45,219 nucleotides of DNA from a virus. Lineage: Duplodnaviria; Heunggongvirae; Uroviricota; Caudoviricetes. Of the stretch, positions 42,764-43,363 are shown piece after piece (position 1 is the stretch's first letter; each line of letters opens with the position of its first letter). The DNA lies in the IMG/VR virus record IMGVR_UViG_2721755646_000014. One strand, written 5' to 3'. The notes below the pieces were generated by a model. It saw only the letters and a list, made by a program, of their open reading frames with translations, was not told the origin of the DNA and made no database searches. Position numbers and translations under genes: made by a program.

Positions 42764-43265
42764 CTACAGATTGCCGTTCAGTTTTCTGGCCAACTCTTCA
42801 ATAGATGGAGGTGATACGTAATCCGGATTTTTATTCATAAGAAACTGATTTTCACAGTACAGGCACCTGCTTTTATGAAAAAATTCATATTCTCTAACCG
42901 GGAATGGCTGAAGTATCGATACTATCTTTTGTCCAAAACATTTTGGACAAAGATGCATGATTATGCTGCCGCCGTTCACGGTTACCTCCTTCGAGTACAC
43001 AAAAGTTCCCGACTCAAGTTGGCTAAGGATATAACCTTCCGTCTGAGCCTCAAAGTTTTCAAATTCTGCAATTTTAGCTTTGAGAGAAGCATTTATTTCT
43101 TGATAAGTGCCCACCAGCTCAACGAGAGACACGCATTCGCGCTGAATAGATGCAAGCTTTGAGTTCAGTTCACCAATAGCCGCATTTACTTCAGCTTGAG
43201 TTTTTGCCTCGTTCATTAGTTTTGCAATCTGGGCGGTTTCACGAATAGCCGTCATTGCTGCCGTT
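42764..43265 (-). CDS. Hypothetical coiled-coil protein with C-terminal zinc-ribbon (CPKC…CLYC); AT-rich moron convergent with the pL-like operon
   Basis: ORF 42764-43432; likely start ATG 43265 (MTAIRETAQIAKLMNEAKTQAEVNAAIGELNSKLASIQRE…) or GTG 43279; lower GC than surrounding genes; opposite orientation to its neighbours. Confidence 0.5.
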
Positions 43266-43363
43266 AATTCAGCGATCACATTCAATACTCTTATTGTTGT
43301 TGGGGATATCCAGATTAACAAGATCCTTGTTGTTGGGGAATAACGGGGACCACCTCGCCTGAC

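Follow-up and report, generated by a model that had tools for sequence, protein, structure and literature searches.

Rip1 ('ring interacting pore 1'), reportedly described by Patel, McCarthy, Taylor et al. (Nature 651:1060, 2026, doi 10.1038/s41586-025-10075-1), is the protein to which we relate a small antisense gene of the Escherichia coli O157:H7 lambdoid prophage CP-933N. This prophage, integrated beside potC, makes up the 45,219-nucleotide (nt) stretch of DNA analysed here, hereafter the window, and coordinates are positions of that whole window unless another locus is named. The encoded protein is almost beyond doubt a member of the Rip1 family (PHROG 1244), and we consider it probable that the gene specifies a Rip1-family abortive-infection protein carried by CP-933N as a moron, which in the Hendrix definition is an additional gene that brings a promoter and terminator of its own, has been inserted between conserved genes of the phage, and often differs in composition.

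In the published accounts (PMC13434031, PMC12908700, PMC13601566), Rip1 is presented as a single prophage-encoded protein, harmless on its own, with escape mutations in the portal for phages of Pseudomonas and in the small terminase for those of E. coli. The same accounts have 12 Rip1 monomers encircling an 11-mer small terminase (PDB entry 9oox), the C-terminal half of Rip1 touching the ring, the N-terminal amphipathic helices forming a pore through which liposomes and cells become permeable, and the infected cell dying prematurely (PMC13434031, PMC12908700, PMC13601566). Two further systems are close enough in setting or target to be relevant. Tab of P. aeruginosa phage JBD26, an 83-amino acid (aa) product of a minus-strand moron with its own promoter in the gap that separates the small terminase gene from the large one, blocks the assembly of tails by way of the tape measure protein and is paired with anti-Tab (PMC10884400), and TerI of Listeria phage phi10403S blocks packaging without forming a pore and is accompanied by two self-immunity proteins (bioRxiv 10.1101/2025.02.27.640495). 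Both were considered as identities for the window protein and rejected as different proteins, as was GiPD474 of Gifsy-1, a different protein with an ATPase domain.

Membership of the Rip1 family

The window protein shares homology and fold with the Rip1 of Escherichia phage HK446. A search of PHROGs placed it in phrog_1244 ('unknown function') with an expect value (E) of 2.7e-56, and HK446 gp37, which is Rip1, likewise fell into phrog_1244. A profile of the window family matched chain L (Rip1) of 9oox, the cryo-electron microscopy structure of HK446 Rip1 with the small terminase of phage T6, over positions 4-151, nearly the whole length (E=1.4e-28), and the single window sequence also matched the 9oox Rip1 by phmmer (E=3.6e-7). 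By BLASTP the window protein and HK446 gp37 were 27% identical (E=5e-13), and hhalign of the window family against HK446 Rip1 gave a probability of 99%. The AlphaFold2 (AF2) model of the window protein had a predicted local distance difference test (pLDDT) score of 92, and the only significant Foldseek matches of this model in the PDB were 9oox_M and 9oox_L (E=7.7e-7, probability 1.0), with a target-normalised template modelling (TM) score of 0.72 to 9oox_M over 120 columns. Pfam, NCBIfam, and PADLOC (2023), libraries that are older than Rip1, returned only coiled-coil noise for the protein. An earlier note on this DNA, made from the sequence alone, had found that the product resembled nothing recognisable, a view overturned by the profile search, hhalign, and Foldseek, which make it a clear member of the family.

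Among phage genomes searched by tblastn, the closest allele was that of PhiR49_1 (94%), followed by Klebsiella phages (51% identity), the Pseudomonas Casadabanviruses DMS3, JBD30, D3112 (orf25), and MP38 (31%), and hkaP of HK620 with its counterparts in HK629 and HK630 (30%, E=3e-12). The family as a whole comprised 3313 clusters (50% identity, E<=1e-3). Judged by its sequence, the window gene is a new, divergent allele of a family that has itself been known since 2026.

The gene and its position in the prophage

The gene and the elements that precede it in the immunity region are as follows.

42764..43279, minus strand: rip1-like coding sequence, 171 aa, GTG start (WP_000559928.1 = AAG55872.1)
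41705..42181, plus strand: racR-type prophage repressor (NCBIfam NF049929, E=8.8e-74; Prokaryotic Genome Annotation Pipeline, PGAP)
42290..42318, plus strand: strong, near-consensus pL-like sigma-70 promoter, TTGACA-17-TATAGT (promoter scan)
42497..42649, plus strand: DUF1391 (ydaF/ydfA-like), first gene of the early-left operon (Pfam PF07151; PGAP)

An identical protein is encoded by EDL933 (AAG55872.1, UniProt Q8X8C7), where it is labelled 'unknown protein encoded by prophage CP-933N'. Translation starts at the GTG at 43279, with the ribosome-binding site AAGAG 8 nt upstream; this start is kept as 'MIAEL...' among homologues and is also the choice of PGAP (WP_000559928.1). The minus-strand open reading frame (ORF) ending at 42764 that the earlier note had pointed out is therefore a real gene, its estimated length of about 167 aa was close, and the left end of the proposed span, 42764-43347, was correct; the right end was not, as the gene ends at 43279 and the conserved block upstream of it at about 43379. 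The note was also right to describe the gene as opposed to its neighbours and as lying between the repressor with its pL-like promoter and the exonuclease-xis-int genes: it is the sole minus-strand gene amid racR, the pL-like promoter, DUF1391, an exonuclease remnant, xis, and int, and the pL-like promoter reads through DUF1391 toward its 3' end, so that the two are convergent. Its description as AT-rich is true only in a modest sense, the gene having 39-44% G+C where the flanks have about 50%.

The 901-bp rip1-like locus was 100% identical across many O157 genomes, and at least 80% of it was present in 330 of 5426 complete E. coli genomes. Compared with its homologues, the ORF had a ratio of nonsynonymous to synonymous substitution rates (dN/dS) of 0.14-0.25, and purifying selection acts on it.

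The gene occupies what we take to be the sieB slot of lambda and Rac. The rip1 gene of HK446 is antisense in the interval from N to ral/cIII, which is the sieB slot, and hkaP of HK620 and HK630, annotated 'putative superinfection exclusion protein', is antisense between N-hkaQ and cIII. The 94% allele of PhiR49_1 lies between yfdP early-left genes and cI, a Citrobacter prophage has its homologue between xis and cI, a Salmonella prophage has one inside the rightward (pR) operon beside a cro-like gene, and in Casadabanviruses the homologue is antisense between the terminase genes. At every homologue site examined it was a lone gene, antisense to the lytic operon, and the placement of Rip1 in the review PMC13434031 agrees with this context. 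Because of the Rip1 homology and the antisense homologues in the sieB slot, the idea of a defence or exclusion moron at this position holds, and its class agrees with the characterised homologue. The slot is also variable among related prophages, as the earlier note had asked: NCTC9112 has the same racR-DUF1391 immunity region with an unrelated cargo in the slot, and ESY001, whose prophage lies at the same potC site, has a zinc-ribbon gene of the ECs_2282 family (66 aa) in the same antisense position.

A slot that is filled differently in related prophages, an orientation opposite to the neighbours, and a lower G+C content mark the rip1-like gene as a moron of one gene, read in the direction opposed to the early-left operon. 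Scans for a minus-strand consensus promoter or terminator found none in the window, and -35 candidates judged by eye were poor; a hairpin followed by a run of T residues comes after the conserved downstream block in many homologues and is missing from the window. In a related prophage of E. coli (L012 4838-5538), two extra genes (186 aa and 42 aa) without equivalents in the window lie between DUF1391 and the Rip1 homologue, and the 186-aa protein had no match in Pfam or PADLOC.

Protein architecture and proposed mechanism

The two-part architecture proposed in the earlier note, a helical N-terminus and a CPKC...CLYC ribbon, was borne out by the AF2 model and by the alignments.

43043..43279, minus strand: N-terminal helical region, aa 1-79 (AF2 helices 3-23 and 28-79)
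42830..43030, minus strand: C-terminal beta-rich zinc-ribbon domain, aa 84-150 (AF2; aligns to the CxxC...CxxC of Rip1)
42938-42949 and 42854-42865, minus strand: CPKC and CLYC, respectively, within the zinc-ribbon domain

The four cysteines C111, C114, C139, and C142 were invariant in alignments of 31 and 43 diverse homologues and line up with the LCAQC and RCHRC motifs of Rip1. Q46, G91, and Y95 were invariant in the same homologues and a SILQP motif was nearly so, all of them aligning with Rip1. The N-terminal helix 3-23 is amphipathic, with a hydrophobic moment of 0.44 (residues 7-25) as compared to 0.42 (residues 7-24) in HK446 Rip1, and the window protein has no uncharged segment of transmembrane length, its longest run without charge being 14 aa. 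From this arrangement we infer that the N-terminal helices are the putative pore-forming part and that the C-terminal zinc-ribbon domain putatively binds the phage protein ring.

Since the first helix is as amphipathic as that of HK446 Rip1 and there is no transmembrane-length segment, we assign the same mechanism to the window protein, which would thus likely work as Rip1 does. The lysogen would make the rip1 product constitutively and without harm, as the published Rip1 mechanism suggests. When another phage reached late expression, its small terminase or portal oligomer would be bound by the C-terminal zinc-ribbon domain, and the bound phage ring would template a ring of Rip1, which in 9oox has 12 Rip1 copies around an 11-mer terminase. 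The amphipathic helices of the N-terminus would then open a pore in the inner membrane, and the cell would die before progeny phage were completed. On induction of the resident prophage, convergent pL-like transcription may damp rip1.

Several points weigh against this mechanism or its details. Mechanism and trigger class are putatively carried over from Rip1 at 27% identity to the only characterised Rip1 of an E. coli phage, and therefore the trigger, or even the effector step, could differ; this Rip1 clade could sense a different phage ring protein. The mechanism itself is known here through a review summary, a meeting report, and a PDB title (PMC13434031, PMC12908700). The amphipathicity is modest, as the mean over the N-terminal 80 aa was 0.271 against 0.202+/-0.040 in shuffled sequences, or about 1.7 standard deviations. 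The gene strand has no consensus promoter, and expression in the lysogen is therefore an assumption. Finally, CP-933N has a small terminase and a portal of its own, which are potential self-triggers for a Rip1-type sensor, and no anti-Rip1 gene was evident next to rip1 in the window. The resident genes concerned and those between them are these.

24161-24721, minus strand: resident small terminase
22503-24161, minus strand: resident large terminase
20502-22436, minus strand: resident fused protease-major head protein
17951-20287, minus strand: resident portal

Among the alternatives, the one that fares best is that the window protein binds terminase or portal rings as Rip1 does and sequesters the packaging machinery, a block of the Tab or TerI type in which no pore is formed. 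The ring-binding C-terminal half is the best-conserved part in common with Rip1, the Casadabanvirus slot also holds Tab, an assembly blocker, and TerI is a prophage protein aimed at terminase. However, the long N-terminal helices are conserved family-wide, including an invariant Q46 together with L42, the first helix is still amphipathic, and Tab is set apart by its size, its architecture, and the absence of a partner gene here. We therefore regard a packaging block without a pore as unlikely and favour the pore-forming, abortive-infection mode of Rip1.

The neighbouring deletion and other readings of the gene

Immediately beyond the gene, the prophage has lost part of its early-left operon.

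43400..43801, plus strand: 3' remnant (pseudogene) of a YdfE/Rv2179c-like 3'-5' exonuclease (Pfam PF16473, positions 47-177/177)
43404..43411, no strand: junction of an approximately 2.96-kb deletion (blastn against L009, L012, and L007)

The exonuclease remnant matched only the C-terminal ends of exonuclease PHROGs and was annotated by PGAP as 'missing N-terminus'; the last 133 or so codons remain, as compared to 813-826 aa in intact relatives, and in this the earlier note's observation of a missing 5' end was accurate. Its proposal that insertion of the rip1-like gene had removed that end was not. By blastn, window 43295-43404 corresponds to NCTC9112 (L009) 7185-7295 and window 43411-43810 to L009 10259-10658, and in the same way window 42699-43403 corresponds to L012 4578-3877 and window 43409-43810 to L012 918-517. 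These paired segments indicate a clean, separate deletion of about 2.96 kb in the window, which took away dicB, DUF1482, and about 2.08 kb of the 5' end of the exonuclease and whose left edge is some 25 bp past the conserved upstream block. In L012 the same slot is taken by a 65%-identical Rip1 homologue, and dicB, DUF1482, and the full-length exonuclease are all intact, so the insertion was not the cause of the truncation. The early-left operon of the prophage has been eroded here while rip1 stays intact.

This adjacent deletion of some 3 kb, in which dicB, DUF1482, and the exonuclease were lost, has left the prophage partly eroded, and the gene might be thought a decaying, non-functional passenger of a degraded prophage. 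This is improbable, given that the ORF is intact and 100% conserved in many O157 genomes, that its dN/dS is far under 1, and that both flanking blocks are intact. It is more improbable still that the protein is a zinc-ribbon regulator or DNA-binding protein of the prophage (an antirepressor or transcription factor) rather than a defence protein. The CxxC...CxxC ribbon and the adjoining immunity region would suit such a role, but no similarity to a regulator family was seen in Pfam, NCBIfam, or the PDB, homologues also occupy non-regulatory slots such as the gap between terminase genes in Pseudomonas and the pR operon of the Salmonella prophage, and a solved defence complex exists for a homologue. 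A SieB- or Rex-like membrane exclusion or abortive system, suggested by a site at which Rac and lambda carry sieB and by the naming of HK620 hkaP as an exclusion protein from position alone, is the least credible of all, as there was no match to Pfam SieB or any other membrane protein (E<=1), the longest uncharged segment is only 14 residues, and the confident soluble helix-plus-zinc-ribbon fold resembles Rip1 only.

Conserved flanking blocks and repeats

The Rip1-family gene of CP-933N is enclosed by two conserved non-coding blocks, the upstream one of which contains a pair of direct repeats.

43280..43379, minus strand: conserved upstream block (presumed promoter/leader), with the ribosome-binding site AAGAG at 43288-43292
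43349-43379, minus strand: box GCCTG...CAGGC..GGTGG, the 5' part of the upstream block
43314-43319, minus strand: weak candidate -10 element GTTAAT (TATAAT in NCTC9112 and L012), with no convincing -35
43294..43306, plus strand: direct repeat copy 1, TTGTTGTTGGGGA (TCCCCAACAACAA on the gene strand), exact match
43327..43339, plus strand: direct repeat copy 2, TTGTTGTTGGGGA, exact match
42727..42763, minus strand: conserved downstream block (GGATATCCAGATTGTTAAAGAG), about 37 bp, 86-100% identical

The upstream block begins sharply at GCCTG (43379) and extends to the ribosome-binding site. The upstream 100 bp were 82-90% identical, as compared to a nucleotide identity of 57-78% in the ORF, which fell to 57-63% with synonymous sites saturated, and the non-coding flanks are better conserved than the rip1-like ORF across Enterobacterales. 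The loci behind this comparison are L005, L006, L009, L010, L012, L013, L017-L108, and L124-L127. Exactly two copies of TTGTTGTTGGGGA were found, and two matches occurred in 0 of 100 shuffles; the repeats (CCCCAACAACAA on the gene strand) are 33 bp apart and are kept in every carrier of this block. The earlier note had seen both 13-bp repeats, placing them at 43302-43314 and 43335-43347, which is 8 bp off, and had assigned them to this gene, but they belong to a block common to other cargoes.

A 26-nt imperfect inverted repeat (81% complementary) also brackets the ORF, at 42737-42762 and 43291-43316 (core AATCTGGATATCC / GGATATCCAGATT), and its right arm overlaps the first direct-repeat copy. 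A structured-RNA reading of the upstream block and repeats was unsupported: from 23 copies of the block, RNAalifold derived a weak structure (-5.8 kcal/mol) in which there was next to no covariation, and an Rfam search of 42150-43900 returned nothing real.

In a 17-mer scan of contigs most matches were due to chance (about 70 expected), and only the approximately 17 Enterobacterales loci that also had the second repeat were used; by this measure the upstream block was present in about 17 Enterobacterales species representatives. Within E. coli, 813 of the 5426 genomes had at least 80% of the block and 2396 had at least part of it. The rip1 loci of HK446, HK620, and Pseudomonas are without the CCCCAACAAC block, and for that reason we regard the block as a feature of the slot or cassette rather than of Rip1.

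Other cargoes behind the block

At least three unrelated cargo genes have the upstream block in common. Behind it lie Rip1 alleles with identities down to 30% (L023), and also a two-gene cargo consisting of a proline-rich peptide of 26-52 aa (motif ..EKHLP.K.RPP.PPKPK..) and a phrog_6315 protein of 148 aa that contains a hydrophobic, membrane-like stretch. The pair occurs in NCTC9112 (L009 6559-7185, minus strand), Atlantibacter, Sodalis, Pseudescherichia, and L108, the loci being L009, L039, L057, L080, and L108, and its two genes might together constitute a unit for defence or exclusion that is as yet undescribed. Directly after the block, E. coli XH990 (L125 2051-2485) encodes a 144-aa 'ECs1072 family phage-associated protein' and E. 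coli SCU-108 (L126 1961-2473) a 170-aa protein with a signal-peptide-like N-terminus, both in e14/CPS-53-like prophages. Of the whole block, only the 5' box (GCCTGCTTTTAACCACGTCAGGCGAGGTGG, L007 3646-3677) is found in E. coli ESY001, about 39 nt upstream of the ECs_2282-family gene. The alternative cargo proteins had no match in Pfam, PADLOC, or the PDB, and a literature search on ECs1072 and CP-933N returned nothing informative.

Our best guess is that the block is a promoter or leader that doubles as a homologous-recombination boundary for cargo exchange. More broadly, and as a tentative proposal that we hold at somewhat below even chance, the upstream and downstream blocks may together make up a conserved cassette for expression or recombination by which lambdoid prophages of enterobacteria swap cargo. 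If so, the cassette would mark a defence hotspot whose other cargoes would be new anti-phage genes, and the paired repeats would serve as operators or regulatory sites that make expression specific to the lysogen.

A 461-aa ORF at the opposite end of the prophage (2043-3425, minus strand) matched the PHROG of EspN, a type III secretion effector, at the C-terminal profile positions 584-1029 of 1133 (E=6.9e-296), and it represents effector cargo, perhaps in truncated form.

Implications

These results give a probable function to Q8X8C7, a 'hypothetical protein' fixed across many genomes of E. coli O157:H7, with relevance for the phage susceptibility of enterohaemorrhagic E. coli, for competition between prophages, and for phage-based biocontrol. 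They also add to the Rip1 family a divergent clade from enterobacteria, with a trigger range that could be compared with that of HK446 Rip1, and the conserved flanks are an inexpensive sequence marker by which more prophage cargo genes could be located in this slot.

Comparison with known systems

The closest known systems are HK446 gp37 and the Rip1 of a P. aeruginosa prophage. HK446 Rip1 is similar in length (164 aa, as compared to 171 aa for the window protein) and has the same arrangement, with long helices at the N-terminus and a beta-rich CxxC...CxxC domain after them at the C-terminus, but the segment between the two CxxC pairs differs, the window protein adds a C-terminal helix at aa 160-167, and the non-coding flanks of the two genes are not the same. 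HkaP of HK620, HK629, and HK630 is homologous and is likewise antisense, between N/hkaQ and cIII, with different flanks; no experimental data on HkaP were found in the literature.

No homology between TerI and the window protein was detected. SieB of lambda, P22, and Rac shares with it the slot, the orientation relative to the early-left operon, and the class of prophage-expressed abortive or exclusion functions, but is a membrane protein without sequence or fold relation to it. Tab is comparable in that the gap it occupies holds Rip1 homologues in the sister phages DMS3, JBD30, and D3112, and in that Tab and Rip1 both act on proteins of the late assembly stage; it is set apart by size and architecture, and by its partner gene, for which no counterpart is evident beside the window gene.

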